The notes: a model not told the origin generated them from the letters alone. DNA of 62,002 nucleotides from an uncultured Nitrospiraceae bacterium (GCA_964393845.1 CAYMUX010000004.1:1-62002), one strand, 5' to 3'. Shown: positions 21,344 through 62,002, counted from the stretch's first letter. Made by a program: numbers and translations.

Positions 21344-21344
21344 A

Positions 21345-32298: not shown

Positions 32299-32411
32299 TG
32301 TTTTTAAATTAATCATCATGCAATCTAATTTATCATTCATAATTCATAATTAACAATTTGTTGTTGTCAATCATTTCACCCTTGTGGTAAAGTATTTGCA
32401 AGAGGTTAAAT

Positions 32412-32660: not shown

Positions 32661-32752
32661 CTTATCTTCTCCATTTCTCCTCTTCCAAATTCTGCATCTT
32701 CGCCTTTATAATTCAACATATTCATAATCCTGCTCTAACATCTTTTACTTCC

Positions 32753-34392: not shown

Positions 34393-34429
34393 AGTTAGTT
34401 AATATCAAATGGATTTTGGCATTTGACAT

Positions 34430-35732: not shown

Positions 35733-35748
35733 TTATCATTCCGCCTTA

Positions 35749-36075
35749 TCAGTCGCCCTGGGCCGTTAGGGACGCGATAACAAGATTTTCCGTTGATGCA
35801 TTGCGTATGCCGTGGTCTACGAGAGCAGGGACGATCACGATCTTGCCGTTATCTATGACCTGTGTCTCCCCTGCCGCCATGAATTCTCCCCTCCCTTCCA
35901 TGACTATCCAGATATGGTTCCCGTGATGTGTATGGGTTGTTATCTCCTGTCCCGGTCTCATGCAGATAAGATTTATCTTTGAATGTTTGTCCGACCATAT
36001 TGTTTCATGGCTCCGTTTTTCTTCACTAAATTGTTTAAGCTTCGCAATGTCCAGTACCAAACTCTTGTTCTTCAT
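35749..36075 (-). CDS. cupin domain protein
   Basis: 108 aa with PGQEITTHTHHGNHIWIVMEGRGEF...VPALVDHGIRN cupin motifs. Confidence 0.8.
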   Translation of the reverse strand: MKNKSLVLDIAKLKQFSEEKRSHETIWSDKHSKINLICMRPGQEITTHTHHGNHIWIVMEGRGEFMAAGETQVIDNGKIVIVPALVDHGIRNASTENLVIASLTAQGD

Positions 36076-36150
36076 AATTCCCTCCGGTAATTTTATTTAT
36101 TTATTGCAATTCAAAATTAGCGCCATTTCAGCCTGACTCATATCAGGATG

Positions 36151-38058: not shown

Positions 38059-38074
38059 TTCGTAATTCGTAATT
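38059..38074. repeat. tandem heptamer repeat (AATTACG x2)
   Basis: ttcgtaattcgtaatt fills almost the whole 14-nt gap between the YedE-like stop and the permease ATG. No SD is present there. Confidence 0.6.
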
Positions 38075-39179: not shown

Positions 39180-39696
39180 AGGACCCTGCCAGCTTTCTTA
39201 AAAGATAATACACATTTTTCTTCGCCGTCTTCATATCCTGATCGCCCGGTTTTTTTGAGAGAGTCTCATTTATCCTCAACTTTGCTTCATTTATGGCAAT
39301 CTTTATTTTGTAACCCTGGAAGAACGGTGTCTTTTTATCCAGGTAATCCGGATTCAAGTCAACCGCGTCTTTATATTTATAAATGGCGCCAACAGCATCC
39401 TGCTTACGCATCATCACATCGCCCATCAGCATGTGAAGCTCCCCGTCATACGGATATTTTCCAGTCAGCTCATTCAGCAGGGCTTCTGCCTTCTGAAGGT
39501 TGTTTGTCTCTATTAGTTTTTTGAGCATGTTTAACTGATCGCCTGAAATTCCATCCGCTTCCGCTGCGTTTCTTGAGTGAGTTAATGAACTATTAATATT
39601 CTTTCCGGAATCACTGCGATATTCAGAGCTGACAACGGCAATGGCTGCAATGAATATCAGGATAAAAATTATAGAAAATTTGTCCAGCTTGTCCAT
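39172..39696 (-). CDS. TPR-like secreted/anchored protein
   Basis: 174 aa with an N-terminal TM/signal. It has the TPR-like helices ...LQKAEALLNELTGKYPYDGELHMLMGDVMMRKQDAVGAIYKYKDAVDLNPDY. Confidence 0.55.
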   Translation of the reverse strand: MDKLDKFSIIFILIFIAAIAVVSSEYRSDSGKNINSSLTHSRNAAEADGISGDQLNMLKKLIETNNLQKAEALLNELTGKYPYDGELHMLMGDVMMRKQDAVGAIYKYKDAVDLNPDYLDKKTPFFQGYKIKIAINEAKLRINETLSKKPGDQDMKTAKKNVYYLLRKLAGSCG

Positions 39697-39766
39697 ATGG
39701 CCTTATTATAATCAATTTAAACGTGTGCTTAACGGTTAGGCAAGGAAATACGGGATGAAATTATTT

Positions 39767-40081
39767 TCAATTTAGTTCCCACTCCTGAGAGAAAGTTGTT
39801 TTAAAATCTCGCGCACAATGAATGACTGCAAGTATTTCAACATGGTCGTCGTCCTTGATTCTATAAACGATCCTGTAATTTTGATAAATGACTTCCCTGA
39901 ATCCATATATTTCAAACTCAGGAACAATGCGTCCGCAGCGAGGAGACTTCTCAAGTTTTAAAGCTGCTTTGATTAGAGATTTTATGAACCGGATGGCGTA
40001 TGTTCTGGAATCATTCGCAATGAAATCATGAATTGCCTGCAAGTGGCTGCCTGCCTTTTCCGACCACTTTATTTTCCCCAT
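39767..40081 (-). CDS. RelE/ParE family type II toxin
   Basis: 104 aa. The pattern W...A...L..I.DFIA.DS...A..F...I......L...P..GR.VPE.......REVI..NYRIVYR fits the family. It overlaps the upstream antitoxin gene. Confidence 0.8.
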   Translation of the reverse strand: MGKIKWSEKAGSHLQAIHDFIANDSRTYAIRFIKSLIKAALKLEKSPRCGRIVPEFEIYGFREVIYQNYRIVYRIKDDDHVEILAVIHCARDFKTTFSQEWELN

Positions 40082-40254
40082 TGGTCAACTCTTGCAAGGA
40101 GTTCTTCAGTCGATAACAATTTCCCATCTTCAGCGTCTTTAAGACCTTCAAGAACCTGAGCAATAAAATTTATCTCATACATAATATCTTCGACAGAACA
40201 GCCGTCAGGAAGACGCTTTATAGACTGAACGGTTGCTTCCTTGAGTAAATCCAT
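40069..40254 (-). CDS. type II antitoxin (small, acidic)
   Basis: AAGGTGG SD before the ATG at 40254. The product is MDLLKEATVQSIKRLPDGCSVEDIMYEINFIAQVLEGLKDAEDGKLLSTEELLARVDQWGK. It overlaps the toxin by 13 nt. Confidence 0.6.
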   Translation of the reverse strand: MDLLKEATVQSIKRLPDGCSVEDIMYEINFIAQVLEGLKDAEDGKLLSTEELLARVDQWGK

Positions 40255-40308
40255 TTTCGACACCACCTTTCATCAAGTCTTTTCATAATTATAACAAATA
40301 TTACACCG

Positions 40309-41223
40309 TCAATATTTTTGATACGGCGGCATATTTGTCCGTTTTGCGAGGTCCCTTACAATGTCATAATCCTCATCCCTGACCCCTGCAAAACCTTCAA
40401 GACGCGTCCTCCTGAGAACACTCACCGTTTCTCCGTCTATCTCCACAGTGTCCGACTCTTTGAGCTCCAGCAGGGCCTTTTTAAATCTTTCAGCAAATGA
40501 GTCCTCTACCCTCTGCGTGTAACCGAACGTGCAGTACGGAATCGGATCGCCTTTTGCGATTATCCTGAAATCATCAGAGACAATTTTACCGTCTTCGATC
40601 ATCTTTTCAAAATCGAGCATCTGAAAAGCCCCCGCGTCGAATTTGCCGTAAAGAACGCTGTATATGACTTTCTCGTGTTTATATGTGCCGGTCGGTATCG
40701 TATAGAAAGACAGATCATCCTCCGGATTGATTCCCTCGCTAAGCATCAGGTCATACTGCTGTAAATAACCCGTGGGCCCCAGCATCGGGCCGAAGATCAT
40801 GCTCCGGCCCTTCAGGTCTTTTACCGTCTTTATATCACTGTCTCTTGTCGTTACAATAGCGCCGGCTGATTTAAAACCGAGCGATCCCTGGACATCCGCA
40901 GTCAGGACCTTCACTCCGTGGAAGCGGTTCAGTATGATATAAAGCAGTGAATTGGTATGAGTGAAATCCAGGTTCCCGGCTTCCTTTGTAAATTGAATCG
41001 TATTAATAGCTACCGCCTCTGTCCTTACACCCAGCTTTTTCCCGAGATATTCTGTCAACGGCCTGAACCTGTATAGTGTCTCTTCCTCGCTGTTGCATAT
41101 CATGTAGCCGATTTTTATTACCTTCTCATTCTTGACTGAGGAAGGCTCCGGCCGGCAGGATAAAAATATTACTATTATGAAAAGTACGAACATTGAAATG
41201 ACCGTTGTTTTCTTGCCTGTCAA
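40309..41223 (-). CDS. PhnD-like substrate-binding lipoprotein (third paralog)
   Basis: 304 aa with the lipobox-like FLSC. KIGYMICNSEEET...GPTGYLQQ... fits the PhnD-type pattern. Confidence 0.7.
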   Translation of the reverse strand: MTGKKTTVISMFVLFIIVIFLSCRPEPSSVKNEKVIKIGYMICNSEEETLYRFRPLTEYLGKKLGVRTEAVAINTIQFTKEAGNLDFTHTNSLLYIILNRFHGVKVLTADVQGSLGFKSAGAIVTTRDSDIKTVKDLKGRSMIFGPMLGPTGYLQQYDLMLSEGINPEDDLSFYTIPTGTYKHEKVIYSVLYGKFDAGAFQMLDFEKMIEDGKIVSDDFRIIAKGDPIPYCTFGYTQRVEDSFAERFKKALLELKESDTVEIDGETVSVLRRTRLEGFAGVRDEDYDIVRDLAKRTNMPPYQKY

Positions 41224-41343
41224 TTGATCATCCTCATTATTAAAATAATTACAAGCCGGTTAATAAAGCAAATACTCTTTGTCGACAACAAAAACAAAAA
41301 AACCCGGCAATCCCGATTACAACTCTACTTTAATATTTTTACT

Positions 41344-42264
41344 CTACCTGAGTCCATGCATTCTCCTCAGCAGATAATATACCCCGCCCAGGGCAATGAT
41401 AATAAAACCGGTGTAAACATACACAGTACCGGGGTCCCTCGTTATCTGTATGCCCACAAACGGCCGGCCTGCCGTGTCACGGTCCGTTGCCGTATGGTAG
41501 AAATTCATCCCCCCCCACTTCAGGGGACTGTTCACACCAACCTTGCCCTCCGCGACCATTTCAGAATCCCGGAGCAAGCCCATATCCACCCAGGTCTTTT
41601 TTATAACGGGGTCCTGGTATGCAACCAGTTTAAACGCAAAGGGAAAACCCTCCGGGAGGGTGCCGGCCCCCGACGTATCGGCGCTGCCTATAAAATCACC
41701 TTTATAATATACGCTCAATTTAAGCTTCTTCGCGTAGAGTTCGAGTTCATCCGCCCGCACCGTATATTCTTCCATAACAAAGTCTTCCCCGGTCTTAAGA
41801 ATAAATAATCCAAACTTCTCTTCGCCCCTTAACACTCCCACCTTGACCGGGACCGGATAGTATTCCTCATAAAGTTTTTTAATCATGATCTTAACACCCG
41901 GGGAAATATCCTTTGCAAGGTCCCACCGGTAGACCTTATCAGCAACGTCCCCTTCATAGATATTCACCGTGGCCACGAAGCCGAGAGAACTGATGCCGCC
42001 GCCGATAAAGGCGGTTATGACGCCTACGTGTATCAAGAGAATAGGTTTTGAAAGTATCTTTATTCTCTGAATGGTGCATAAGGAGAGATTTATAACCAGC
42101 AGCCACAACAGTCCGCTGATAATATTCCATATGAGAGGGACATTCCCCTCTGTAAAAGTTGTCACCGCAAGCAGCAGGCACAGTACCGGCAAAAGACCTA
42201 TTGTCAGCTCTTTGGATGAAAGTAAATAGTATGGCCATCTGATTCCTTTCCCGGAAGATTTCAT
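41344..42264 (-). CDS. ResB-like cytochrome c biogenesis family protein (short form)
   Basis: 306 aa. It has LSSKELTIGLL..., HVGVITAFIGGGIS, NIYEGD, VNSPLKWGGMNFYH and a C-terminal TM (DPGTVYVYTGFIIIALGGV). Confidence 0.65.
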   Translation of the reverse strand: MKSSGKGIRWPYYLLSSKELTIGLLPVLCLLLAVTTFTEGNVPLIWNIISGLLWLLVINLSLCTIQRIKILSKPILLIHVGVITAFIGGGISSLGFVATVNIYEGDVADKVYRWDLAKDISPGVKIMIKKLYEEYYPVPVKVGVLRGEEKFGLFILKTGEDFVMEEYTVRADELELYAKKLKLSVYYKGDFIGSADTSGAGTLPEGFPFAFKLVAYQDPVIKKTWVDMGLLRDSEMVAEGKVGVNSPLKWGGMNFYHTATDRDTAGRPFVGIQITRDPGTVYVYTGFIIIALGGVYYLLRRMHGLR

Positions 42265-42284
42265 TTACACGCCGGCCGCTTGCT

Positions 42285-42881
42285 TCATATAAGTTTTTTC
42301 TTCTTCAAAAAATCCCTTGCAGCCCTTCTGACTTTTTCCCCTGATTTAACGGCCTTGACCACCTTATTGAAATCCGTATCATTTGAGATGCCGTTCAGCT
42401 TATTAATGACCCTTGGAAGCGCTGGAAAATTAATGAGCACATCCTCAGTTATCACCGCAGCATAAAAATATTTGCCGCTGCCCTTCTCTTCAGGCAAAAA
42501 ACCGAACGGGTTTAGCCAGATAAGGTTCATTCTTTCCCTGAATTCTTTTTTAGATATGTCATAATCTTTTTCTTTGTCTTTGCTATTGGGCATGTTCAGC
42601 ATACTCATCGCGTGATCAGTGTTTTCTATGATTATTCCCAGTTCTGCTTTCTTGACGGAATCATAAAGCTCTTTCGCATTGTCAAACACCTTGATGTTCA
42701 CCGTGGTCCCGGTCCTCTCGTTTATAAGCACGGAAACGAGTTCGGCAAGCAGATTTTCATTCACCGAATTTGTTATGCCTATATTGATAATCCTGCCCAC
42801 ACAGGCCTGCGATCTTACACCGAAAGACAGGAGCACAGAGAGCAATAAAATTAAAGCTGTTGTCCTCATTTTCCGTTTCAT
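42285..42881 (-). CDS. secreted substrate-binding-domain-like protein (glycine-betaine/OpuAC-like, short)
   Basis: 198 aa with a signal peptide. There is only weak pattern resemblance (IGITNSVNENLLAELVS...ELGIIIENTD). Confidence 0.35.
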   Translation of the reverse strand: MKRKMRTTALILLLSVLLSFGVRSQACVGRIINIGITNSVNENLLAELVSVLINERTGTTVNIKVFDNAKELYDSVKKAELGIIIENTDHAMSMLNMPNSKDKEKDYDISKKEFRERMNLIWLNPFGFLPEEKGSGKYFYAAVITEDVLINFPALPRVINKLNGISNDTDFNKVVKAVKSGEKVRRAARDFLKKKKLI

Positions 42882-42893
42882 ATAACCGTGCCT

Positions 42894-43592
42894 TTATTCT
42901 TTTGTGTCAATTGTAATGTCATAACTATTTCTCTCTCCCTCAATAGTTATTTCACCGGTAATACGGTAATGAGACCGGAGAGGAAATTCCCCGGCGTATC
43001 CAGTGAAGTATTTCCCGGGGGAAAGATAGAGTGTGTATTCCCCCTTCTCATCCGTCCATGCCGATACATAAGCAGGTATCTCAGGCATGTCTTTGCTCCT
43101 GGCGGCTATCGCATAAACATATGCGACAGGGGCGCCCTTGTGATCGATGATCCTTCCTGTTAGTTTATAGTAATCTTCCCGTGTTTTCCTGACAAGACGG
43201 GCAGCCTCTCTGATATCAGCTATTTTAAAGTCCTTCTCAATTACCTTGCCTGCCTCAAGTTCAATCTCAAGCGGTTCACCTGAATGCTTGTCTCCGGTTG
43301 CCAGCGGCCCGTATTTCTCACCCTTTCGAAGCCGTGCCACGGCCCACCACTTTCCGGCAGGCACAGTCATGCTGAACCTGCCCAGTGTATCAGTCCTGGC
43401 GGATATGAAATCCGCGGGCCTCCGCGTGTCAGTTGTCCTGTAAATAAACAGCTCGGCGCTTTTTACGGCCTTACCATCCACGTCTGTTACCCGTCCTTTT
43501 AGAACGGAGTTTTCCAGTGCTATGGCTGGATTAAAAGTCAAAGTGATTACGAATATAATAACGGCACTTATTATGATTCTGTTAAATTTCAC
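42894..43592 (-). CDS. secreted protein with two carboxypeptidase-regulatory-like (CarboxypepD_reg) domains
   Basis: 232 aa with a signal peptide. LKGRVTDVDGKAVKSAELFIY... and LTGRIIDHKGAPVAYVYAIA... are starts typical of this Ig-like fold. Confidence 0.7.
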   Translation of the reverse strand: MKFNRIIISAVIIFVITLTFNPAIALENSVLKGRVTDVDGKAVKSAELFIYRTTDTRRPADFISARTDTLGRFSMTVPAGKWWAVARLRKGEKYGPLATGDKHSGEPLEIELEAGKVIEKDFKIADIREAARLVRKTREDYYKLTGRIIDHKGAPVAYVYAIAARSKDMPEIPAYVSAWTDEKGEYTLYLSPGKYFTGYAGEFPLRSHYRITGEITIEGERNSYDITIDTKE

Positions 43593-46138
43593 TCTCCGGT
43601 CTCCACCTTTTCATTTAAAACCGGTTCAAACACAACCGTGCCTATGCCGGGCTCTCTTCTTGCGTCAAAGATGGTCCCGGCAGGACCTGCAGTTCCCCAC
43701 CAGTTTTCCTTTGCGTTAACATCCTCCGTATTAAAATCACCTGCCCTGACATTATAATTTGTATTGGAATAAATATTGTTCCTTCTGATCGTCAGCCCTC
43801 CTCCGCCTTCCCGGACAAATATCCCTGTTTCATTTCCGTATATATCATTCTTTTCTATCAGCGCATTTGCCATGAAGGCCCTCATCCCGATACCGTTCTC
43901 CTTAAACAGAGAGCCGGTAATTTCAATGGGCCCGCTCCTGAACCTCATCCCCCCCAAGTTCCTGATAAACCGGGAGTTATTTACTTTCAGGGCGGTAAAA
44001 TGACTGTGGACCCCCCAGGTCGCATGTTCAAAGTCACAATATAAAATCACACTGCCGTCCGCATGCTCAAGGAGTATCTCGTCCCAAAAGCTGCTGTCAC
44101 TCTTTTCAAGTGAGGTAAAGGTGATCCTCCTGTCTTTTTCTCCTGCTGCAATGAGCCGCGCACTGCTGATCTTCATACCCGCGCCCTTTGAAAGATAGAC
44201 CTTTGTCCCGGGGGCAATTGTGAGCGTAGTACCGGAACGCACCTCAACCTGGTCCCGGATGTGAACACTGTTATTCCATGTAATATTGGACAAGACCGTT
44301 CTCACAGGCCATGTATAATTCACCGGTCCTTTTTTCGCAGGCAGATAATCGACCTTGCCCCTGCCCTGTTCATCACCTTTATCAAATATTGCATCATCTG
44401 TGTTACCGTCACCCCACCAGTTCATCAGCGCAGAGATATCCGACGCGCCTTCATTTTCAATGGCGTATATACCGTTTCCTGTTATTGAGTTTTCAGTAAT
44501 GGTCCCGGTAAAAGACTGTATGCCTATGCCCCTCTCCCCATTGTCTGAAATAACATTGCCTTTAATCACCGCTCCGGAAGAGAGTATATTTATCCCGTTA
44601 AAGCCGCTGCCCTGTATAAAATTCCCGCTGAGATCAACATTGTCGCTGTTTTTCAGGGCAACGCCTGTCTCAAAGTTGTTCGTAATGACATTACCGCTGA
44701 ACCGTCCGTAAAATGAATCATTGACCATAAGGCCAGAGCGGTTGCAGTCAATGATATTTTCCCTGACCACCACGGCGCCTTCCCTGATCTTAAATCCCTC
44801 ATCCATATTGCCGAGGATTTTATTGTTTGACGCAGACAGACTTGAGCGAAAGAAATTGACGCCGTTGATATTGTTATAGACATAGTTATCGGTAAAGATG
44901 ATTTCCGAGTCCCTGCCCTTGATCCCGCTCTTATTGTTAAAGATATAGTTGCCTTTCATCTCCACTGCCGACTCCTGAAACTGTATGGCCCGGTAATTAT
45001 TGCTAAGCACAGCCCCCTGCACCATTACATTGGAGAAATGGAAATGGAGCCCCCGGTAGGCGTCCTCTATCCGGCAGTATTCCACCAGGTTCTGCGCGCC
45101 GTCGCTGTTCATTATATTTATGGCGTCCCAGTCACCCATTGAACGTATTATTCCCGCTGACCGGAATATGATCGGATTATCTCTCGTTCCCTTTGCAATA
45201 AGTACCCCCTGCATCAGGAGCCCGTTCTCCCCTATGCCGTCGCCGTTTGTGTCCTTCTTTGTGAACTCGATAACGGTGCCTGGAACAATAACCAGCCTGA
45301 CCTTTTCAGGGACCCTTATCAGTCCGCTTATTTCAATCCTGCCTCTCCAGACCGTGTCTTCAAGCAGCACCTGGTCTTCATACCGCCTGGTTATCTCTTT
45401 ATGCGGAACAGTGTAATTTTCAATAATATCAGGGCCAGTCCTCCGGCATGACCGGTCGTCTCTTGCATGTACTTTCCCGGCATCCCCGGTTTTCTTTCGG
45501 GACGTTAAGACGTCTTTGTCAATAACGCCATACAGATACAAATCCTTTTTTCTGTTGCCCTCCACAAAGCTGCTGCCGTAATTTACTTTTGCCCCGTTTA
45601 ATTCAAAGACCCCGTAGTCGTTCCCGGTTATCAGGGTATTTTCCATCTGTACAAGCGACTGCACTCCATGCGCCGCAAGGCCATAACGGTTCCCGGTTGA
45701 GACAGAGTCCCGTATATAAAGAACACCTTTAAATATGTGAATACCTGTTTCCGCATTCCGGATGGCGCACCATTTTATGTCGGCGGTCCCTCCGTCAATA
45801 ACAATTCCGGCCCATCCGTCTGATGCCACACTGTCCTTTATATGAAACACAACCTGATGCCCTTCCGAGCCCTCGATGTTCAGTCTGCCCCTGATCATAA
45901 TCTCTGTCAGGGATGAAAGATATTCAGGATCGGTCTTGGTCCTGTCGGAAGGTTCTATGTTTACCTTTGTGTCCGGCAGGATGGTCAGCGTAACGCCTTG
46001 AGGGACGAGGATGTCGTTATTAACAGAAACCTCACCGCTCCAGACGGTATCTTTTATCAGGGTCTCTCCCCTGGACGTAAGCGGGAATAATAAAACTGCG
46101 AGAGCGCAGGACAAAATTGCTATTCTCAGAAAAGTCAT
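43589..46138 (-). CDS. secreted right-handed parallel beta-helix (NosD/PbH1-like) protein, three modules
   Basis: 849 aa with a signal peptide. The entry motif DTVW(S/R)G...(V/I)P.G.TLTI.PGT recurs three times. Many N/G-rich 22-24-aa coils follow, plus NWWG motifs. Confidence 0.8.
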   Translation of the reverse strand: MTFLRIAILSCALAVLLFPLTSRGETLIKDTVWSGEVSVNNDILVPQGVTLTILPDTKVNIEPSDRTKTDPEYLSSLTEIMIRGRLNIEGSEGHQVVFHIKDSVASDGWAGIVIDGGTADIKWCAIRNAETGIHIFKGVLYIRDSVSTGNRYGLAAHGVQSLVQMENTLITGNDYGVFELNGAKVNYGSSFVEGNRKKDLYLYGVIDKDVLTSRKKTGDAGKVHARDDRSCRRTGPDIIENYTVPHKEITRRYEDQVLLEDTVWRGRIEISGLIRVPEKVRLVIVPGTVIEFTKKDTNGDGIGENGLLMQGVLIAKGTRDNPIIFRSAGIIRSMGDWDAINIMNSDGAQNLVEYCRIEDAYRGLHFHFSNVMVQGAVLSNNYRAIQFQESAVEMKGNYIFNNKSGIKGRDSEIIFTDNYVYNNINGVNFFRSSLSASNNKILGNMDEGFKIREGAVVVRENIIDCNRSGLMVNDSFYGRFSGNVITNNFETGVALKNSDNVDLSGNFIQGSGFNGINILSSGAVIKGNVISDNGERGIGIQSFTGTITENSITGNGIYAIENEGASDISALMNWWGDGNTDDAIFDKGDEQGRGKVDYLPAKKGPVNYTWPVRTVLSNITWNNSVHIRDQVEVRSGTTLTIAPGTKVYLSKGAGMKISSARLIAAGEKDRRITFTSLEKSDSSFWDEILLEHADGSVILYCDFEHATWGVHSHFTALKVNNSRFIRNLGGMRFRSGPIEITGSLFKENGIGMRAFMANALIEKNDIYGNETGIFVREGGGGLTIRRNNIYSNTNYNVRAGDFNTEDVNAKENWWGTAGPAGTIFDARREPGIGTVVFEPVLNEKVETGE

Positions 46139-46201
46139 AGTCTATTTTATGCCAATTGGGGCTGGAAAATAAAATTTCATGAACGATAAAAATATTCCGG
46201 A

Positions 46202-46247
46202 TAAAAAATGGCCGGGTCTTTTTACATGTAAATCATAGACCCGGCCC
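46202..46247 (-). terminator. intrinsic terminator after the 20-codon gene (copy B)
   Basis: On the minus strand, GGCCGGGTCT pairs with AGACCCGGCC around an 18-nt loop, followed by AUUUUUUAU. Confidence 0.65.
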
Positions 46248-46276
46248 TGACATGAGGGTTTTTTAATTATGCTTAC

Positions 46277-46339
46277 TTAACACGGATGCACAACGGCCCT
46301 TCCGACTATCCTCGGCGCAACATATTTTATTTTCTTCAC
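46277..46339 (-). CDS. unannotated 20-aa peptide (M)KKIKYVAPRIVGRAVVHPC, copy B
   Basis: GGGAGGTGG SD lies 6 nt before the GTG. An in-frame ATG at 46360 would add MNRGRWN but has no SD. It is a paralog of 49402..49464 and ends at TAA. Confidence 0.6.
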   Translation of the reverse strand: MKKIKYVAPRIVGRAVVHPC

Positions 46340-46376
46340 ATTCCACCTCCCTCTGTTCATTATTGAAAAGCCTGAT

Positions 46377-47240
46377 TCATTTTTTCTTTTCGGTATCTTC
46401 TTTCATCTTGTGTTTCATTTCTTCCTTAATATTTTTTTCAGGCGTCTGCTCAGGCTGCTGGCCCTTCGGCCCTCTCTCAAAATGCCTTACTACTTTTATA
46501 GTTATGCCCTGTGTATTCTCCCCCGTTTTAACAGCAACGGCAGCAGGCCTTTCTTCACCGTAACCACCCATTACCGAGCCTGCAACAGGCGGGCCTCCTC
46601 CGTATATATCCCTGACTCTCAGATAATAATTACCGCCCTTGTCCACTGCGATGAAGTACTTTCCATCCGGCCCTGTCTTGTACGACGTAAACGGCGGAAT
46701 GCCGGTCATCGTCTCTGTAATATAGGCAAATACTATGGCCCCTCCGACAGGGTCGCCGCTCATGTCGACGATTGTGCCGGATATCCCGCTGACCCCTTCG
46801 GCGATTTTCCTCTTGAACGGAACGGCCTCTGAAACAACTCCAACACTCTGGCTTTTATCTTTTTCAATTATATAGGCAACAGCAATTCCGTCCTTGTCAC
46901 GTCTTATAAAAAAGTAATCACCGTCCTGAGGGGGACCGATCTTTTCACCTGACATCCTTTTTATGGCGCCCATGTAATACTTACCCACAGGCAGCATAAT
47001 ACGGAACTTGCCCTCTTCATCGAGGTCTCCTATCTGGTCCGGGGTCCTCACGAACTTGTCAGGGTCCGGCGCCGGCCCTGTCGCAGCATCAAAGAACACC
47101 ACCATCCCGCCTGACATAGGACCTCCGTCCTTGATCATAATTTGCCCTGAGAGCCAGCCGATAGCGACTTCCTGCGCAGCAATATGTGATGCAAAGACAA
47201 ACATGATGAACAAAAATACAACAATGCCCTTTCTCACCAT
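46377..47240 (-). CDS. secreted CarboxypepD_reg-like protein with Lys/Glu-rich tail
   Basis: 287 aa with a signal peptide. LSGQIMIKDGGPMSGGMVVFF... and ISGTIVDMSGDPVGGAIVFAY... mark the domain starts. The tail is EKNIKEEMKHKMKEDTEKKK. It is a paralog of 49550..50134. Confidence 0.7.
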   Translation of the reverse strand: MVRKGIVVFLFIMFVFASHIAAQEVAIGWLSGQIMIKDGGPMSGGMVVFFDAATGPAPDPDKFVRTPDQIGDLDEEGKFRIMLPVGKYYMGAIKRMSGEKIGPPQDGDYFFIRRDKDGIAVAYIIEKDKSQSVGVVSEAVPFKRKIAEGVSGISGTIVDMSGDPVGGAIVFAYITETMTGIPPFTSYKTGPDGKYFIAVDKGGNYYLRVRDIYGGGPPVAGSVMGGYGEERPAAVAVKTGENTQGITIKVVRHFERGPKGQQPEQTPEKNIKEEMKHKMKEDTEKKK

Positions 47241-47241
47241 T

Positions 47242-49326
47242 TCATTCCCCCTTTCTCACCCCTGTAGTTTCAGCAGGAGACGTTAAATAAGGTTTATATA
47301 ATACGTTACCTAATGTTCTGTCGGTCTTTCCGTCATATATCGTCCCAGGGATGTCCGTTTCCCTGATGCTGCCCCACCAGTTGTCCTTGAGTGAAATATC
47401 ATAACCCTGTCTTTCACCAAGCCTGTAATTATATGAAACATTATACGTTATATTATTGTGTGTGACAACAGGCTGATACTGGTTAAGTATATCCTTCCTG
47501 TCAAATGTTTCAGAGAAGTCCACAATGTTCTGGTTTGAAGGCACAAGAAAAATTCCGACATCATTGTCCCTGATATTGTTGTAAGCGATCTCAACAGGTC
47601 CTTCAAGCCTTGTATGTCTGATCCCATAGGCATTATCGTGAATATCGTTATGCTCGATACGGAGCTCCGTCCTTCCAAACCGTATCCCTTCATGATTTCG
47701 GGCAAATACCGAATCCGTTATAAGCGCTTTTGAAAAATGCACCTGGACTCCTGTAAAGGCATATTCGAAGATGCAATATTTAACAACGCTTTCATCTCCC
47801 GACACAAAGAACAATAGATACGCCCAGTCCATTTTATCAGGCCTGTCTTCACCTGAAGTAAATCTGATCATATTACCGGGAGCGCCTTCCGCGAGTAACC
47901 TTCCGCTGACTGTAATCTTGCTGTCACCAACTCCATCACGGTCCCTGTCGATTTTCCTGAACATAACAACCGTGCCGGGGGTGACTGTCAATGTGGCATT
48001 GCGCGCAACATGTACGGTGCCTTTTATAATGATGTAACCGCTCCAAACAGTATCTTTGTTTATAACTTTATCACCATCGTAAAAATGATTGCGAATCAGT
48101 GATAGGGGGTCAGGGGTTGGGGATTGGGAATTAGCGTCTAGTGCCTCTTGCCTCTTGCCTGCTTCCGCCATGACTCTACTGACCAGGATATCCACATTAT
48201 CAATGGAATCTTTTTCCATCATAACTGAATGATTTGCATTCTCCTCATAGAGTCCATAATTTTCGCCTTTTGCCGGGGCCTCTCCAATAAGGTCCCTTGC
48301 GAGTATATAATAGCTGCCCTTCCCTGCCGTATTAATTGTGTAAAAACCTTTATTGTCGGTCCTTGCCAGATATTCCGGCATGGTCCTGACAAAAAGCATT
48401 TGAAACATTTGTTCGGGCTTACCCTTATATGCCATGACATAAAGGTCCTGCATCGGGTTTCCCTTCATGTCGGTCACACGCCCTTTAATACTCAGGACAT
48501 CTGATATCTTTTCAATTTTATTCTCTCTGAACCGCATACTGTCTTCTCCGGCTTTTTTTACCATTATAGCCGGATACACTTTTTCATCAAGAAATGCCTT
48601 CAGGTCGTCCTTGGGATAACATGGTATCTCTATCTGTTTCACTCCTGAAGCCGTAACAGCAACAGGATTCCCGTCATAGTAGCAGAAAAGGTCCCCCTTT
48701 CTCAGTGGCCGCAATCCGCTGAAGTCCATTCGCTTACGGGCCACGATAACATATTCACCCGGTTCAGGCGACATAGTGAAAGCCCCTTCATTATTCGTTG
48801 TACTTGTAAGGAACCCCATTCCCCTGAAATTCATATCTGTCACGGGATAGATTGATATCTGGGCGCCATTAACAGGGGCGCCTTTAAATGTAATTCTGCC
48901 GGACAATCCAGAGGCAGATGATTCGTTAAATATCTCACTCGTCCTGGGGAGGGCCATAAACGGGATCCATAGATCAGTATCCGTTATTTCTACCGGATTC
49001 GCGCCGTGGTAGGAAAAATATTTCGTACCGGCAAAATCCCCGGTTGAAACCAGATAATACCTTCCGGGAGGCAATTCAATTTTGTAGAAGCCAATCTTGT
49101 CTCCCTTTTCAGAAACAAACGAGGGCCGTCCATTCATATAGTCCTGGAACGTGCCATATGCAAACACTTGAGAATCCCCTACAGGGCCTTTTTCAGAAAG
49201 GACAATGCCTTCTATAACAGCGGATGATGATAAATCAGGGAAGGAAAACCCGGCGAAGAGACAGTAGAAAAATAAAATAAACCACTTTGATTTATATCCA
49301 TATCTAATCACATTCAATAATACCAT
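47242..49326 (-). CDS. secreted fusion: three CarboxypepD_reg-like domains + one NosD-like beta-helix module
   Basis: 694 aa. The domain starts are IEGIVLSEKGPVGDSQVFAY, LSGRITFKGAPVNGAQISIY and IKGRVTDMKGNPMQDLYVMAY. Then come DTVWSGYIIIKGTVHVARNATLTVTPGTVVMF, beta-helix coils and DNWWG. Confidence 0.8.
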   Translation of the reverse strand: MVLLNVIRYGYKSKWFILFFYCLFAGFSFPDLSSSAVIEGIVLSEKGPVGDSQVFAYGTFQDYMNGRPSFVSEKGDKIGFYKIELPPGRYYLVSTGDFAGTKYFSYHGANPVEITDTDLWIPFMALPRTSEIFNESSASGLSGRITFKGAPVNGAQISIYPVTDMNFRGMGFLTSTTNNEGAFTMSPEPGEYVIVARKRMDFSGLRPLRKGDLFCYYDGNPVAVTASGVKQIEIPCYPKDDLKAFLDEKVYPAIMVKKAGEDSMRFRENKIEKISDVLSIKGRVTDMKGNPMQDLYVMAYKGKPEQMFQMLFVRTMPEYLARTDNKGFYTINTAGKGSYYILARDLIGEAPAKGENYGLYEENANHSVMMEKDSIDNVDILVSRVMAEAGKRQEALDANSQSPTPDPLSLIRNHFYDGDKVINKDTVWSGYIIIKGTVHVARNATLTVTPGTVVMFRKIDRDRDGVGDSKITVSGRLLAEGAPGNMIRFTSGEDRPDKMDWAYLLFFVSGDESVVKYCIFEYAFTGVQVHFSKALITDSVFARNHEGIRFGRTELRIEHNDIHDNAYGIRHTRLEGPVEIAYNNIRDNDVGIFLVPSNQNIVDFSETFDRKDILNQYQPVVTHNNITYNVSYNYRLGERQGYDISLKDNWWGSIRETDIPGTIYDGKTDRTLGNVLYKPYLTSPAETTGVRKGE

Positions 49327-49334
49327 ATAATATT

Positions 49335-49384
49335 AATAAAGGAGGATATCCATTCAATAAATGAACAAGATATCCTCCTTTATT
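49335..49384 (-). terminator. 16-bp perfect hairpin after the 20-codon gene (copy A); attenuator/terminator-like
   Basis: aataaaggaggatatc pairs with gatatcctcctttatt around an 18-nt loop. The hairpin ends 8 nt before the ATG of 47242..49326. The flank is A/U-rich but has no clean U tract. Confidence 0.5.
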
Positions 49385-49401
49385 CGCACGACCACATGTA
49401 C

Positions 49402-57641: not shown

Positions 57642-60600
57642 TTACCATTGGGTTACGTTGTTCCACTTCTGGTTATTCCACGTCCCTGTCATGGTGTCAT
57701 GACATGCAGGCCACCAACCTTTGTCTCGAGGGAATCTGTAGGTAGTGCTATACTGGTAACCCGCACCTCCAGAAACTACACGCCCTCTATGATTGTCATT
57801 AAGACAGTTTGTAGCCATCAACCTCGGCAAACCCGAATTGTGCGGCTGATGACATTTTGAGCAGGGATAATTATGTTCCACGTTATTGCCCCATCCTTTT
57901 ACTGTCTCGTGAATCCTGTCGAGGCTCTTGAATGCAGTATTCTTGTTTATCCCGTCCGTCAGGTTGGCCTTCGGATGACACCTGAGACAAAGGCCGGCAA
58001 ATTTGGTTTCATCCTCGCTGATCTTTCCTCCCGCACCAAACGTCTGGCGGTCAAAATAAACCTGCTGGTCCACGCCGCTGTCATAGCGATGATAATTACT
58101 TATTGATGTGGGCGCAACGTCTTCCTTATAGGGCGATGTAAGCCATGTTCCCTTAAGAAGAGGAACCGCATATGCCTGGTCGCTCCCAAGGCTTGGGCTT
58201 ATACCGTGAGGGTCATGACATGGCGTGCAAAGCCCGTTGATTGATCCCTGCGCCGGGTTGGTCAATGAGGAAGACGCCTTCAGATGCCCGCCGAGCATGG
58301 TCCTGCTCGATCTGTATGAATATCTTGTGGTAGACCCCTTTGCGCCTGTACCGAAACGTAATGTATCTTTGTAGCCCATTATCGCCTCTGATGCGCCGTA
58401 TGTGGAATTATAGCCCCAGGGCTTTGTGCCGGAACTCGCTGTCTCATGGCAGTCAAAACACTGCGCTGCCCCTGCATTGTACGGATTAACTCCGGTTGTG
58501 TTCGCGGCAGCCTTGTACGTCATGGAATAGCCGCCCTTGCCTGCCTGCGTCTCTTTTAAATTCCCGCCGTTATTCGTCCCGTTAAATGTCTTATAGCCTG
58601 AAGTAACGCCTGTTGCCTTTGAACCGTGAGAGCTGTGACAGTCAAAACACTGAACGTTCTGGCCCCCGTTTCGCGTATTGGGTATCGTGCCGTCCAGTCC
58701 CGTTGCCGCATCCCATCCGCCCTGATTGGCTACTGCATTGCCGTGCGCGGAGAATGACTTGGTTATGTTCTTCTTCGCAGCATTCGTTGTTGTTGTATAT
58801 TTGCCCCAGGTGGTTGTGCCTGTCTGGGAATAACGCGCGGCTATACTCGTTCTGTCCCACGCGTACTGTCTCGGTGTCTTGCAGTCACCGTTGTCGGGGT
58901 CCACTATGTTGAACGACTCCGTATCATTGTTCTGGTCGCTGTGGCAGCTCAAACAGTGCTGGGTAACTTTTGTAACCTCAGTCCTCTCATCAACAGTGCC
59001 GACCTTGTTGGCTGTAAATGTTACCGCTGTAGTCCCGGCAGTATACGTCGTAGGCCGCGTTCCCGCTCCCCAGATGACAAGATCAGATGCTGCCTCTTTG
59101 ACAGAAACATGAGTTTCGAAATTATATCCTGCATGATAATCAACATTGATTAGTCCCATGTCCGTTGCCTCCCAGTGGCAGGCATAGCAGTGCTTATTTG
59201 TTAACGTCACGCCCTGAATGTGATGGGAATTGGAACGTAATTGTCCCATAATGTCCATCCGCTTGTTGATTACCCCTTCATGACACTTTGTGCAGTCTTT
59301 CGGAAGTCCGAATCCATCATGTCTCGGTATGGGTTTGTTTTGATGGCAGGTGTTACAAGCTTTGCCTGAGGCGTGGCTGTCGCTGAACCTGTGCTCATGA
59401 CAGGTCGTGCATATCCTGCCTGATTGATGCCCGTCTCCATAATCAAACCTGTAATGCTGTCCTGTTTGTGAATGGCATACATTGCATATACCGTTATACG
59501 GGGCCGATGTCTTTGCATAATCCAGTCCCGTCTGTTTCCTTGTAAAGGATACATCCCTGCGCGTTACCGGAATTCCGTATGTTCCGTCCGTTTCTGTAGC
59601 AACCTTGTTCTGTATCATGTATATATTGGTGTCGCCGTGAGGGTCGTGACAGTCCCAGCAGAACTTACCGCCCTTCCAAACTCCGTTATTCTGATACGCC
59701 GCATAATGCTTATAGCCGAAATGTGTTGAGGTAGCTTTACTCACTGCGGTAATATGACCGGTGCCGGGATTATAACCAAGCTGATACTGAGCGCCTGTAT
59801 GGCATTGCTGACACCTGTTGTTGCTGTCATCATCATGGCAAATCAGGCAAACGCCCATCATCACATACTGATTTTTGATATCCGTCTTTTCTGCCGCAGT
59901 CCACAGACCTACCCCTGTGATATGTGTTTGGTTATCTGTTGCATGACAGACCGCAACACAGGATGTCAGTCCGTTTATGTAGGATGTATGATCCTGGGAA
60001 AAAGGAGGACTTGTTATAGCCGTCAGTTGAGGCGCAAGCGAGCCGGCTGCATTATGGCAACTTAGACACTCGCTGTCCAGACCCTCCATGTGGCAGTATA
60101 CGCATTCTTTGTCGAAACGCTTATTGAACTGGTCATGCTTCTTCAGCCGGAAAGGGTTTGTCGAGTCATTATGCAATATATCATTGTCATGGCAGTACCA
60201 GCATGGATTCCCGGGAAAATTAGCGGGCGGATTACTTGACGTGTAATTACCCGAAGCAGCAGGCCTGCCATGCCCTGAACTTGCCCATTCATTCATATTG
60301 ATCTTTCCGCGCGTTCCATTAAATGCCCCGAAGTCATCAATATCACTTCCGGTCGTGCCGTGACATGAAAGGCAGATGACTGCGTTATCGACTGAATCCC
60401 CCCATTGAGGGTCGGCTCCGGTATGACAGGCTGTGTTAGAACAGGTTTTGCCGACCTGGCTGAATGTGCCCCCGCCTGAAAAAGTGACGTCTTTTATCTT
60501 GTTGACATGGTAAGCTGGATTTATATGGTTGATTTCGTCCATTGCGCCGCTTCCGGTGTGACACCCGGCTGTATCACAGCTTTGGGCTGTAATTGTGAGG

Positions 60601-62002
60601 GCATGACAGTTGTTACAGGTGAAATTCGTCAGCAGATGACGTTTATGCGTATTGGCCTTTTCCGTTCCCGCGCCGGTATTGGTATACATGGGCATGGCTG
60701 ACTTCCATTCCTCGCTGGCAGACCATCCTATTCTGCCGTCATTATGGCAGGGAGCGCAACTGCCGGTTGGGTGTCCATGACACGTATTACATTTCGCGTG
60801 TCCGTCCGTCCATGCAAAGGGTCTCACTTCAGGATTCACCGTGGTACCGTCACTGTGGCAGTACACATTGTTGCACACCATCGTCGCAGGGTTGTAACTC
60901 GGCGCCGGATTGCCGGCTATGTACCACTTCGACGCCATCACTATGTCCTTTGTCTCATTTACATGCTTTGAGTAGTCCTTTATATTGCCGGACGTATTCA
61001 CCGTAGCGTCATGACAGTAATAACACGGATATTTCCTCACCCACTGGCTGCTTACAAGACGATTATGCCCATTGCTGCTCATCTCAAGCGCCTCAAGACC
61101 CGTCCTCCCGTTATGACATGAATCACACGCCATGGCTGTGGTATCACCCCACTTTACCGCTACATTGGGCGCGCCTCCCCTTGCATTGCTGTGACAGTAT
61201 GTGCTCGTGCATGACTTGGTCCCTGCCGTATAAGTTCCCCCTGCTGAAAATATAACGTCCTTTGTATTGTTGGCGTGATAAGACTGGTTTTTGATTGCGC
61301 TGCTTCCGGTAGCTGTTTGATAATGACACTTCTCGCAGTGAAAGCCGTGCCCGGAAGCATCCGTATTCTTGCCATGCTTATAACTGAGCGCACTTAATGA
61401 ACCTCCTGCATCATGACAGGACGAACAGGTTACAGAGCCGTCCCATGACGGTGAAGTGGCCTGCCCACCTCCCCAGACCGTGCCGTTAGGAAGTTCGCCG
61501 TGGCAATATATACTGCTGCAGGTCTTGCTGCCCGTATTTATTACAGTAGTATTAACTTCGCTGTTGTCATAATTCGCAGTTGTCTGCCCGTCATATATGC
61601 CGCCGGAATACGCGCCCCCAAAGAGCGAAAATCCTATCGTTATGGTTCCATTATTGTGCGTTGACCCAGTGCCTAAGCTGTTGTAATGACAACTCTCACA
61701 GATGTATGCCTTGATGGTTACATGCTTATTATGCGCTCCAGCTGTTGTTGAGCCTGTAGCCGGACTATTCGCCAGACCGTCAGGGCCTCCGGTTGCCGTG
61801 TTTACCACAGGCGGATAACCATGGCAGACGTCACAGCCCACTACCTTGAAACCCTCCGTATGCCGGTGGCACGTCGTACACTTCACCCCGGCATTATGGG
61901 TATGGTTGCCCGTAACATCATTTTTGTGATATTGGGTCTGCGTGTGACAGACCTCACATATTCCATCATATGTCGCATCTCCATCAGCAAACGACTTTGA
62001 AC
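57642..62002 (-). CDS. very large multiheme c-type cytochrome, 5' end outside the window
   Basis: The frame stays open from 62002 (…SKSFADGDATYDGICEVCHTQTQYH…), so the track 'M' at 61886 is an internal GTG. Manual count gives 29 CXXCH, 5 CX4CH and 1 CX3CH. Paired CX4CH...CXXCH units resemble the Geobacter-type repeat. Confidence 0.9.
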   Translation of the reverse strand, partial: SKSFADGDATYDGICEVCHTQTQYHKNDVTGNHTHNAGVKCTTCHRHTEGFKVVGCDVCHGYPPVVNTATGGPDGLANSPATGSTTAGAHNKHVTIKAYICESCHYNSLGTGSTHNNGTITIGFSLFGGAYSGGIYDGQTTANYDNSEVNTTVINTGSKTCSSIYCHGELPNGTVWGGGQATSPSWDGSVTCSSCHDAGGSLSALSYKHGKNTDASGHGFHCEKCHYQTATGSSAIKNQSYHANNTKDVIFSAGGTYTAGTKSCTSTYCHSNARGGAPNVAVKWGDTTAMACDSCHNGRTGLEALEMSSNGHNRLVSSQWVRKYPCYYCHDATVNTSGNIKDYSKHVNETKDIVMASKWYIAGNPAPSYNPATMVCNNVYCHSDGTTVNPEVRPFAWTDGHAKCNTCHGHPTGSCAPCHNDGRIGWSASEEWKSAMPMYTNTGAGTEKANTHKRHLLTNFTCNNCHALTITAQSCDTAGCHTGSGAMDEINHINPAYHVNKIKDVTFSGGGTFSQVGKTCSNTACHTGADPQWGDSVDNAVICLSCHGTTGSDIDDFGAFNGTRGKINMNEWASSGHGRPAASGNYTSSNPPANFPGNPCWYCHDNDILHNDSTNPFRLKKHDQFNKRFDKECVYCHMEGLDSECLSCHNAAGSLAPQLTAITSPPFSQDHTSYINGLTSCVAVCHATDNQTHITGVGLWTAAEKTDIKNQYVMMGVCLICHDDDSNNRCQQCHTGAQYQLGYNPGTGHITAVSKATSTHFGYKHYAAYQNNGVWKGGKFCWDCHDPHGDTNIYMIQNKVATETDGTYGIPVTRRDVSFTRKQTGLDYAKTSAPYNGICNVCHSQTGQHYRFDYGDGHQSGRICTTCHEHRFSDSHASGKACNTCHQNKPIPRHDGFGLPKDCTKCHEGVINKRMDIMGQLRSNSHHIQGVTLTNKHCYACHWEATDMGLINVDYHAGYNFETHVSVKEAASDLVIWGAGTRPTTYTAGTTAVTFTANKVGTVDERTEVTKVTQHCLSCHSDQNNDTESFNIVDPDNGDCKTPRQYAWDRTSIAARYSQTGTTTWGKYTTTTNAAKKNITKSFSAHGNAVANQGGWDAATGLDGTIPNTRNGGQNVQCFDCHSSHGSKATGVTSGYKTFNGTNNGGNLKETQAGKGGYSMTYKAAANTTGVNPYNAGAAQCFDCHETASSGTKPWGYNSTYGASEAIMGYKDTLRFGTGAKGSTTRYSYRSSRTMLGGHLKASSSLTNPAQGSINGLCTPCHDPHGISPSLGSDQAYAVPLLKGTWLTSPYKEDVAPTSISNYHRYDSGVDQQVYFDRQTFGAGGKISEDETKFAGLCLRCHPKANLTDGINKNTAFKSLDRIHETVKGWGNNVEHNYPCSKCHQPHNSGLPRLMATNCLNDNHRGRVVSGGAGYQYSTTYRFPRDKGWWPACHDTMTGTWNNQKWNNVTQW

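Follow-up and report, generated by a model that had tools for sequence, protein, structure and literature searches.

Locus and gene extent

The locus occupies one end of a 62,002-nt stretch of DNA from an uncultured Nitrospiraceae bacterium (GCA_964393845.1 CAYMUX010000004.1:1-62002; hereafter the window). On the minus strand, a frame that remains open from the contig edge (62002) to a TAA stop at 57642-57644 comprises 1452 codons with 35 heme-binding motifs, bearing out the multiheme cytochrome of more than 1450 aa proposed in an earlier note on this sequence. The manual count given there, 29 CXXCH, five CX4CH, and one CX3CH, was reproduced exactly by a regular-expression count. Shuffling the protein 20,000 times with its composition preserved gave a mean of 0.63 motifs and a maximum of 6, and 70 of the 73 cysteines lie inside motifs. 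The features of the locus, with motif conservation given for 70 aligned homologues, are listed below.

57642..62002, minus strand: 3′ 87% of a giant multiheme c-type cytochrome gene (open frame, motif count, TIGR01904 and PF09698)
60147..61643, minus strand: four tandem tri-heme repeat units, residues ~120-618 (self-alignment; TIGR01904/PF09698 region)
61500..61520, minus strand: CX4CH motif CSSIYCH, residues 161-167, in the more variable N-terminal part; CX4CH in 48/70 homologues, gaps in the others
61191..61211, minus strand: CX4CH motif CTSTYCH, residues 264-270; CX4CH in 60/70, CX2CH in 5, CX3CH in 4
60855..60875, minus strand: CX4CH motif CNNVYCH, residues 376-382; four-residue spacer kept, CX4CH in 70/70
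60558..60578, minus strand: CX4CH motif CDTAGCH, residues 475-481; ordinary CXXCH (CX2CH) in 53/70, CX4CH in 17/70
60423..60443, minus strand: CX4CH motif CSNTACH, residues 520-526; nearly invariant, CX4CH in 69/70
59943..59960, minus strand: CX3CH motif CVAVCH, residues 681-686; site conserved, spacer length variable
57645..59303, minus strand: family-specific C-terminal core, residues 900-1452, with CxxCHxxHG-type motifs and the end WNNVTQW
57699..57704, minus strand: lone Cys-His near the C-terminus, residues 1433-1434; each residue 100% conserved
50236..57552, minus strand: partner gene for a 2438-aa secreted FN3/beta-propeller/DUF2341 protein (Pfam fn3, SBBP, DUF2341)
42894..50134, minus strand: downstream genes for signal-peptide CarboxypepD_reg proteins (194, 694, 287, and 232 aa) and NosD-like right-handed beta-helices (694 and 849 aa; all by Pfam)

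As had been expected, the gene continues past the window edge: residue 1 of the window aligns with residue ~223 of full-length relatives, which places ~222 N-terminal residues beyond the contig end; the window appears to comprise the complete contig. These full-length relatives carry a Sec signal peptide and 38 motifs, and by alignment to them the complete protein is predicted to have ~1,670 residues and about 38 heme-binding sites, with three CXXCH motifs and a Sec signal peptide in the missing part. A 1414-aa ORF with a GTG start is listed at 57642..61886, but this GTG is not the real start because homology begins already at residue 1.

Family membership

The TIGR01904 family, named in the earlier note as a resemblance, proved to be a true assignment when the suggested motif and HMM scan was made, with TIGR01904.2 scoring 106 bits against a cut-off of 27 (E = 6.2e-31, four stretches) and PF09698 scoring 56 bits against 21.7 (three stretches). 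The repeat of that family, a CX4CH with a CXXCH within tens of residues, is present in several copies that align with one another. Further Pfam matches were to Cytochrome_C7 and Cytochrom_c3_2. End-to-end alignments were obtained for more than 600 relatives of 1400-2400 aa (610 at E ≤ 1e-10 in a word-indexed search), with identities of up to 76-82% in Nitrospirota/Thermodesulfovibrionia MAGs and ~50% in Geobacterales/Desulfuromonadales. One relative (P0001, 1684 aa) is 76% identical over 100% of the query. Within an orthologous group of proteins with 33-39 sites (P0001, P0098/ABB32695.1, and P0037), sequences are colinear at 94-100% query coverage and 50-76% identity, and their C-terminal ends agree (WNxVTxW). 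Among 1.84 billion representatives, a search with the C-terminal core recovered 212 clusters (50% identity) at E ≤ 1e-30, and at E ≤ 1e-3 the number rose to 350.

Judged from these alignments, the window gene is a member of an already annotated giant-cytochrome family, here in a Nitrospirota bacterium. For GlyS encoded in the window, the best matches are likewise Nitrospirae/Nitrospirota/Thermodesulfovibrionia MAGs, which places the host outside the Desulfuromonadia. The earlier remark that cytochromes of this size are rare holds relative to all cytochromes but not for this family, given its 610 relatives, its 212 core clusters, and the several paralogues often present in Geobacter genomes. 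Annotations of this large family go back two decades, and documented giant cytochromes of Desulfuromonadia reach 87 motifs per protein (PMC11492766). The window gene alone would not surprise specialists.

Among the Desulfuromonadia members, Geobacter metallireducens ABB32695.1 (1521 aa) is 51% identical over 94% and shares the order of heme sites and the C-terminal core, whereas proteins of the Nitrospirota clade have 38 sites, and their N-terminus is longer and of a different kind. From its accession number and matching heme count, ABB32695.1 is probably Gmet_2470, which is listed with “34 hemes” and location “unknown” and is transcribed and modestly up-regulated in electron-transferring co-cultures (PMC10989804).

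Heme sites and predicted fold

Each of the 35 motifs corresponds to a conserved position in the alignment of 70 relatives, and from residue 292 onward 27 heme sites are kept, nearly all of them in 70/70. The tri-heme units follow the pattern KDVxF..GG.Y..K.CxxxxCH, ~25 aa, CxSCH, 30-60 aa, CxxCH, and self-alignment of the four units leaves C42, C47, H48, C73, C76, H77, C103, C106, and H107 invariant. The claim that every CX4CH is paired with a following CXXCH stands for four of the five: those at residues 161, 264, 376, and 520 have their CXXCH 23-31 residues further on, at 192, 292, 404, and 543, respectively. It fails for the motif at 475, which has a CXXCH before it (462) and the CX4CH at 520 as its next motif, with no CXXCH following. 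At the CVAVCH site, 30 of the 70 relatives have CX4CH, 28 have CX3CH, two have CX2CH, and ten have CH without a Cys 2-4 residues upstream. Histidines outside the motifs are also conserved, 32 of them at ≥90% and six further at 60-90%, and would be enough to supply a second axial ligand for almost every heme.

Heme density falls from about one per 30 aa to one per 60-100 aa across residues 940-1452, in the C-terminal core. The cysteines outside motifs are C1433 (100% conserved), C1040 (99%), and C1399 (93%), and the invariant Cys-His at 1433-1434 may serve as a heme ligand or as an additional, non-canonical site of heme attachment. AF2 models are moderate overall (pLDDT 65-67) and better for residues ~900-1280 (80-94). 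Searches of the PDB by phmmer, profile, and Foldseek found no neighbour or fold match for the cytochrome, OmcS, OmcE, and OmcZ included. The frequency of S/T-P-S/T “hematite-binding” motifs in the protein is no higher than chance.

A conserved giant partner gene

The partner begins with an ATG at 57552, 89 nt past the cytochrome stop, behind a strong RBS (AAGGAGGAGG), and no terminator-like site was found in the 89-nt gap. The encoded protein contains two SBBP beta-propeller blocks, at least six FN3 domains by Pfam (fn3 6.7e-59, six stretches; ~13 by eye), and a DUF2341/LamG-like domain, and has no heme motif. Our analysis newly finds that, of 70 related loci from two phyla with >1.5 kb of downstream sequence, 69 have a homologue of this gene on the same strand as the cytochrome gene and immediately after it; start-stop overlaps of ~21 nt between the two genes are frequent. 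The pair is present in cultured members of the Geobacter group, namely G. hydrogenophilus (L031), Geobacter sp. OR-1 (L026, L029, and L042), and Geothermobacter hydrogeniphilus (L027).

Also new is that about a quarter of the best family representatives (38/150) carry a heme-free tail of >400 aa fused after the core. The four tails scanned with Pfam (P0157, P0169, P0184, and P0194) contain FN3-like, Ig, LamG, and RCC1 propeller domains. As an argument for a functional link to the partner these fusions are suggestive and fall short of a strict Rosetta stone, because the tails and the window partner have in common only domain classes and weak FN3-level similarity (best match E = 4e-11 at 26% identity, seen only with the low-complexity filter off).

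The genes further downstream (CarboxypepD_reg and NosD-like) also come after the pair in locus L001 and accompany it only in a subset of related loci (14-18/80 by tblastn). Among the neighbours scanned in the window, no gene for a porin, for type II secretion, or for another export route was found. Pfam scans of 32 window ORFs, 12 of which were also scanned with NCBIfam, matched neither a porin nor a further family of cytochromes, and none of the other ORFs examined contains a CXXCH.

Proposed role in extracellular electron transfer

The reading we favour, at a probability of roughly 0.55, is that the cytochrome forms a single-chain heme wire that works with its partner in extracellular electron transfer, a link made plausible by context. 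The c-type cytochrome would be exported by Sec as a protein of ~1,670 aa and roughly 200 kDa including hemes, with about 38 covalently bound and mostly bis-His-ligated hemes. Its predicted layout runs from the signal peptide and three CXXCH motifs through four tri-heme CX4CH/CXXCH/CXXCH modules to a strongly conserved core of ~1,160 aa in which 27 heme sites are nearly invariant. Closely spaced hemes would form one continuous intramolecular chain for electron transfer, a “wire” made of a single polypeptide and tens of nanometres in length. The cytochrome is presumably co-transcribed with the 2,438-aa heme-free FN3/beta-propeller/LamG-type protein, and physical cooperation between the two is probable, with the partner serving as a scaffold, anchor, or adhesin. 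Together they may carry electrons to or from the cell envelope, with Fe/Mn minerals, humics, or partner cells at the outer end.

A more specific version, which we offer tentatively and regard as rather doubtful, is that the two proteins constitute an extracellular electron-transfer apparatus of two components that has not been described before, in which a giant adhesin-like stalk carries or guides the heme wire. Such an apparatus would be common to subsurface Nitrospirota (Thermodesulfovibrionia) and Desulfuromonadia, probably via horizontal transfer, and fused in some lineages. It is also possible that the invariant C-terminal Cys-His, with C1040 and C1399, forms a non-canonical or Cys-ligated heme at which contact or catalysis would take place.

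Groundwater and the deep subsurface harbour Thermodesulfovibrionia and related Nitrospirota in abundance, and these bacteria are mostly viewed as sulfate reducers. A giant cytochrome module that is conserved, intact, maintained by selection, and common to Geobacter and Nitrospirota suggests that the latter may also exchange electrons with minerals or partner cells. The near-universal pairing with an FN3/propeller protein offers a testable handle in cultured carriers and a genomic signature for metagenome searches.

By description, the window protein resembles the long single-chain cytochromes of Desulfuromonadia (a 27-heme cluster, PMC11492766; GSU0702, 35 hemes; OmcN, 34 hemes), which are very large, predicted to be extracellular, encoded outside porin-cytochrome operons, and modelled as one heme chain; none of these is named among the matches listed for the window protein, and in the literature searched, we found no pairing of these with a giant FN3/propeller protein. 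Deletion of omcN in G. sulfurreducens, a parallel drawn by description, gave no phenotype with soluble or insoluble acceptors, and the function of such large extracellular cytochromes has been called unclear by authors in the field. The role proposed here, long-range transfer along stacked c-type hemes outside the cell, is that of the OmcS, OmcE, and OmcZ filaments, although these are polymers of 4-8-heme subunits, whereas the window protein is one polypeptide with ~38 sites.

With the MtrCAB and Geobacter Pcc/Ext conduits it shares a presumed part in extracellular electron transfer and a marginal Pfam match to MtrC/MtrF domain II/IV (30.5 bits against a cut-off of 30). Those conduits have an adjacent porin and a periplasmic deca- or octaheme partner, none of which was found in the window or is listed for L001; where they have a porin, the window locus has a heme-free FN3/propeller giant. 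NHL/beta-propeller repeat proteins (DFE_0451 and DFE_0463) are encoded beside outer-surface cytochrome genes in Desulfovibrio ferrophilus (PMC9769857), but these are small, while the window partner has ~2,400 aa with SBBP propellers, FN3 arrays, and DUF2341.

Alternative explanations

The cytochrome might instead stay inside the outer membrane and either store electrons in the periplasm (as a “capacitor”) or relay them across it, the downstream giant being an unrelated co-transcribed adhesin. Electron storage is one of two roles proposed for very long multiheme cytochromes (PMC11492766), and this reading fits the Sec signal peptide of the relatives, which comes without a lipobox or recognisable sorting signal, and the lack of nearby porin or secretion genes noted above. 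We nevertheless consider it unlikely, as the adjacency across phyla with its frequent start/stop overlaps and the recurrent fusion of heme cores to FN3/LamG/propeller arrays are hard to square with unrelated proteins, and a survey notes that proteins of this type have predicted lengths beyond the width of the periplasm (350 Å for a 27-heme relative, versus 170 Å; PMC11492766).

Quite unlikely, too, is a C-terminal core that acts as a catalytic module, a reductase or oxidase of soluble or colloidal sulfur, selenium, or metal(loid), to which the N-terminal hemes feed electrons. The drop in heme density there resembles that of enzyme-like domains, the core holds the best-folded part of the models and all three conserved non-motif cysteines, and recent work on an unrelated 5-heme polysulfide reductase demonstrated a catalytic heme with Cys ligation (PMC13510729). 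Against this, the protein has no sequence or fold likeness to known multiheme enzymes such as NrfA, HAO, OTR, or MccA (the PDB searches gave generic c3-type matches only) and no CXXCK or CX15CH-type catalytic motif, and conserved histidines are abundant enough for a six-coordinate state of every heme. A YedE-type selenium transporter gene does belong to the same-strand cluster, but it lies ~18 kb from the cytochrome, and any of its flanking genes occur in just 3/80 related loci.

On sequence grounds, the cytochrome gene is not a pseudogene within its visible part, because relatives can be aligned over its full length, every motif is conserved, and a dN/dS of about 0.04-0.07 shows purifying selection. 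A decaying or misassembled gene, whether a pseudogene or a metagenome-assembly chimera of repeated cytochrome modules, is thus very improbable: the contig end cuts the gene, assemblies often break at repeat-rich genes, and its GC content (50.3%) is unlike that of the housekeeping part of the contig (40.8%), but the 1452 codons run without interruption and colinear with relatives over 100% of their length to a stop at the conserved C-terminus of the family, independent assemblies show the same gene order, and the raised GC2 is accounted for by a Gly/Ala/Thr/Cys-rich composition.

Heme-site content and gene boundaries

The minus-strand frame of the cytochrome runs uninterrupted from the last base of the window to a TAA stop at 57642–57644, a length of 1452 codons. 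It contains 29 CXXCH, 5 CX4CH, and 1 CX3CH motifs, which reproduces exactly the count made by hand in the earlier note, and 70 of its 73 cysteines lie inside these motifs. Shuffled sequences of the same residues (n = 20,000) contained a mean of 0.63 motifs and a maximum of 6, so the observed 35 are far above chance. The variant sites, numbered along the visible frame, are:

Residues 161, 264, 376, 475, and 520 (-): CX4CH sites
Residue 681 (-): CX3CH site

The proposal that each CX4CH is paired with a following CXXCH stands for four of the five sites, where the partner motif lies 23–31 residues further on, and fails for residue 475.

As had been supposed, the gene extends past the window edge: visible residue 1 aligns to approximately position 223 of full-length relatives, and therefore about 222 codons are missing. 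A 1414-aa ORF with a GTG start (57642..61886, minus strand) was rejected as the true gene because homology to relatives begins at residue 1 of the open frame, which continues to the window end; its start is an edge artefact. The contig probably ends where the window does, as the database entry for its own GlyS sits on a contig of 62002 bases, and exact-protein searches with two other window proteins revealed no longer copy of the region on record.

Family membership and distribution

The resemblance to TIGR01904 pointed out in the earlier note proved to be true membership, with 106 bits over four stretches against a cut-off of 27. The cytochrome also scores 56 bits against PF09698 (cut-off 21.7) and matches Cytochrome_C7 and Cytochrom_c3_2, with a marginal hit to MtrC/F domain II/IV. 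A word-indexed search recovered 610 relatives at E ≤ 1e-10, and the best 120 of these are nearly all 1400–2400 aa long with 80–100% query coverage. Relatives carry the NCBI name “CxxxxCH/CxxCH domain c-type cytochrome”. The nearest come from Nitrospirae/Thermodesulfovibrionia MAGs sampled from groundwater and deep mines (66–76% identity, and 82% for one partial copy), while a second tier at approximately 50–55% identity belongs to the Geobacterales/Desulfuromonadales and includes cultured isolates:

Geobacter metallireducens GS-15: ABB32695.1, 1521 aa
G. hydrogenophilus and Geothermobacter hydrogeniphilus: further cultured carriers
Geobacter sp. OR-1: three paralogues

Judging from its accession number and heme count, ABB32695.1 is most probably Gmet_2470, a locus catalogued as “c-type cytochrome, 34 hemes, location unknown” whose expression rose 1.7–5.7-fold in some interspecies electron-transfer co-cultures (PMC10989804).

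When only the heme-poor C-terminal core (residues 900–1452) was searched against 1.84 billion cluster representatives, 350 clusters passed E ≤ 1e-3, and 212 of them also passed E ≤ 1e-30. This marks a distinct family of moderate size with many members. Among the Desulfuromonadia, published cytochromes reach 87 heme motifs, and long ones have been modelled as single-chain wires (PMC11492766). The literature also calls the role of such large extracellular cytochromes unclear. Since core clusters are numerous and larger cytochromes have been published, the size described earlier as rare is so only in a relative sense. The gene is an additional member of a known, annotated, uncharacterised family, and the protein alone would not surprise specialists.

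Conserved heme positions and C-terminal cysteines

In an alignment of the cytochrome with 70 full-length relatives, all 35 motif positions are conserved, and beyond residue 292 nearly all sites are present in 70/70 relatives. The CX4CH spacing is kept at residue 376 in 70/70 relatives, at residue 520 in 69/70, and at residue 264 in 60/70, while the site at residue 475 is an ordinary CXXCH in 53/70. At residue 681 the heme position is conserved but its spacer varies in length (CX4CH in 30 relatives, CX3CH in 28, CX2CH in 2), and ten relatives have a bare CH there with no cysteine close upstream. Residues ~120–618 form four tandem tri-heme units in the order CX4CH, CXXCH, CXXCH. Close Nitrospirota relatives are uniformly built, with a Sec signal peptide followed by three extra CXXCH motifs and 38 motifs overall; the complete protein here should therefore reach about 1,670 aa and carry roughly 38 sites. 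Outside the motifs, 32 histidines reach a conservation of ≥90% and a further six lie at 60–90%, or approximately one spare histidine per heme, and mostly bis-His ligation is therefore expected.

Only three cysteines lie outside the motifs (C1040, C1399, and C1433), and they are 93–100% conserved. C1433 is followed by an invariant histidine in a lone Cys-His near the C-terminus (57699..57704, minus strand), which may serve as a heme ligand or constitute an additional, non-canonical heme site. Taken with C1040 and C1399, it could make up a heme site with a long spacer or a single Cys, supply a cysteine heme ligand, or take part in a disulfide. The frequency of S/T-P-S/T “hematite-binding” motifs is at chance level, and they were set aside as evidence.

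A PDB sequence search with the cytochrome returned nothing at E ≤ 1, and a profile search returned only generic c3-type and reaction-centre cytochrome matches, the best being the 16-heme HmcA (1z1n; E = 1.6e-7), confined to a short stretch near the N-terminus. AF2 models were obtained for residues 1–800 (pLDDT 65) and 690–1452 (pLDDT 67, pTM 0.70), the latter reaching pLDDT 80–94 across residues ~900–1280; Foldseek found a PDB neighbour for neither half. On these results, the family lacks a solved relative.

Conserved pairing with a giant beta-rich protein

Directly downstream of the cytochrome lies a second very large gene:

50236..57552 (-): secreted partner protein of 2,438 aa, ATG at 57552

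The partner combines two SBBP beta-propeller blocks with numerous FN3 domains and one DUF2341/LamG-like domain; heme motifs are absent, and histidine makes up only 0.4% of its residues. Its start lies 89 nt past the cytochrome stop, with the ribosome-binding site AAGGAGGAGG ahead. The listed ORF, which begins at GTG 57666, is too long, and the ATG behind this site is the real start. No terminator-like site was detected in a scan between the two genes, and promoter and terminator scans of 45–62 kb performed no better than shuffles.

The most informative result is that this pairing is conserved. In 70 related loci the sequence continues for more than 1.5 kb downstream, and in 69 of them a partner homologue follows directly on the same strand, mostly at near full-length coverage and often with a start/stop overlap of about 21 nt. 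The paired loci cover both Nitrospirota and Desulfuromonadia. The upstream flank is unrelated in most of the ten loci inspected for upstream ORFs, so the module usually begins with the cytochrome. In the contig of one close relative (GCA_040961615.1), the orthologue is directly preceded by two more large cytochrome genes (3..8476, plus strand), one for a product of 1551 aa with 17 motifs and Laminin_G_3, the other for at least 1264 aa with 14 motifs; they are absent from most other loci inspected.

A heme-free tail of 400–1300 aa extends the heme core within one polypeptide in 38 of the 150 best family representatives. The four tails scanned (P0157, P0169, P0184, and P0194) contain FN3-like (Pur_ac_phosph_N), Ig, Laminin_G_3, or RCC1 beta-propeller domains. 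With low-complexity filtering, BLASTP of the partner against all 38 tails gave no match at E ≤ 1e-5; without it, only weak FN3-level matches appeared. Tails and partner have domain classes in common but little sequence similarity. Given this weak outcome of a strict Rosetta-stone test, we downgraded the fusion argument, and the fused tails are supporting evidence, not proof, that the heme core is physically associated with large beta-rich surface-type arrays.

Proposed function

The best-supported reading, to which we assign a confidence of roughly 0.55, is that a single-polypeptide heme wire would be exported by Sec and, together with the giant FN3/propeller protein, would link the envelope electrically to a partner outside the cell. 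The data show which heme sites are present, that the protein belongs to the family, that it is conserved and under selection, and that the two genes are paired. Heme occupancy and ligation, where the protein resides, whether it forms a complex, and in which direction and to which substrate electrons flow are inferred. Against it stand the moderate quality of the structural models and the neighbourhood of the cytochrome, where no porin or secretion genes were found. A periplasmic electron store or relay is an unlikely alternative to a wire reaching outside the cell, and an enzyme whose active site would sit in the conserved, heme-sparse, Cys-bearing C-terminal core is slightly less likely again. 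An assembly artefact or a pseudogene, the latter raised in the earlier note, is very improbable, since the visible frame is open and dN/dS against two relatives is 0.04–0.07 (with dS saturated), which places the visible gene under purifying selection.

Modestly new are the firm placement of the gene in subsurface Nitrospirota, its near-universal pairing with a ~2,400-aa FN3/propeller/DUF2341 protein, and the conserved non-motif Cys/His at the C-terminus; a literature search found no description of the gene pair, nor of the family in Nitrospirota.

Genomic context

The housekeeping part of the contig encodes glyQS, PPDK, sensor kinases, and a GGDEF-EAL protein. The top GlyS match is at 90%, and the best named matches are Nitrospirae/Nitrospirota/Thermodesulfovibrionia MAGs, which places the host in Nitrospirota. 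No tRNA or Rfam matches were found in the window. The window shows a compositional step between 1..33000 and 33000..62002: GC content rises from 40.8% across the housekeeping part to 46.5% in the same-strand cluster at 33–57.6 kb and 50.3–50.7% in the cytochrome and partner. GC3 is 0.53–0.56 for the cytochrome and partner, 0.32–0.46 for most housekeeping genes, and 0.52 for PPDK. The step may stem from horizontal acquisition or from a bias in codons and amino acids.

Downstream of the partner are:

42894..50134 (-): four paralogous signal-peptide CarboxypepD_reg proteins (194, 287, and 232 aa, and the N-terminus of a 694-aa protein)
42894..50134 (-): two NosD-like right-handed beta-helix proteins (694 and 849 aa)

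These genes accompany the pair in only 14–18 of 80 loci. Further along, 33553..39179 (minus strand) encodes two radical SAM/SPASM proteins, an ArsP/SO_0444-type permease of 635 aa, and a putative selenium transporter of the YedE family, which scores 378 bits on TIGR04112 (cut-off 200). In three Geobacter-group loci (L021, L034, and L063), the cytochrome likewise has nearby homologues of the permease, of one radical SAM protein, and of a 306-aa ORF (41347..42264). A role for this ORF as a dedicated CX4CH heme lyase is not supported, its ResB match being weak and partial (31 bits over 30 residues) and NCBIfam giving none. PhnD-like (Phosphonate-bd) periplasmic binding proteins are encoded at 17334..18203 (-), 22145..23155 (+), and 40309..41223 (-). 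Two of these genes adjoin sensors, a HAMP-PAS-GGDEF-EAL protein (14417..17320) and a PAS hybrid histidine kinase (23206..26091), an arrangement that suggests ligand-binding partners for signalling.
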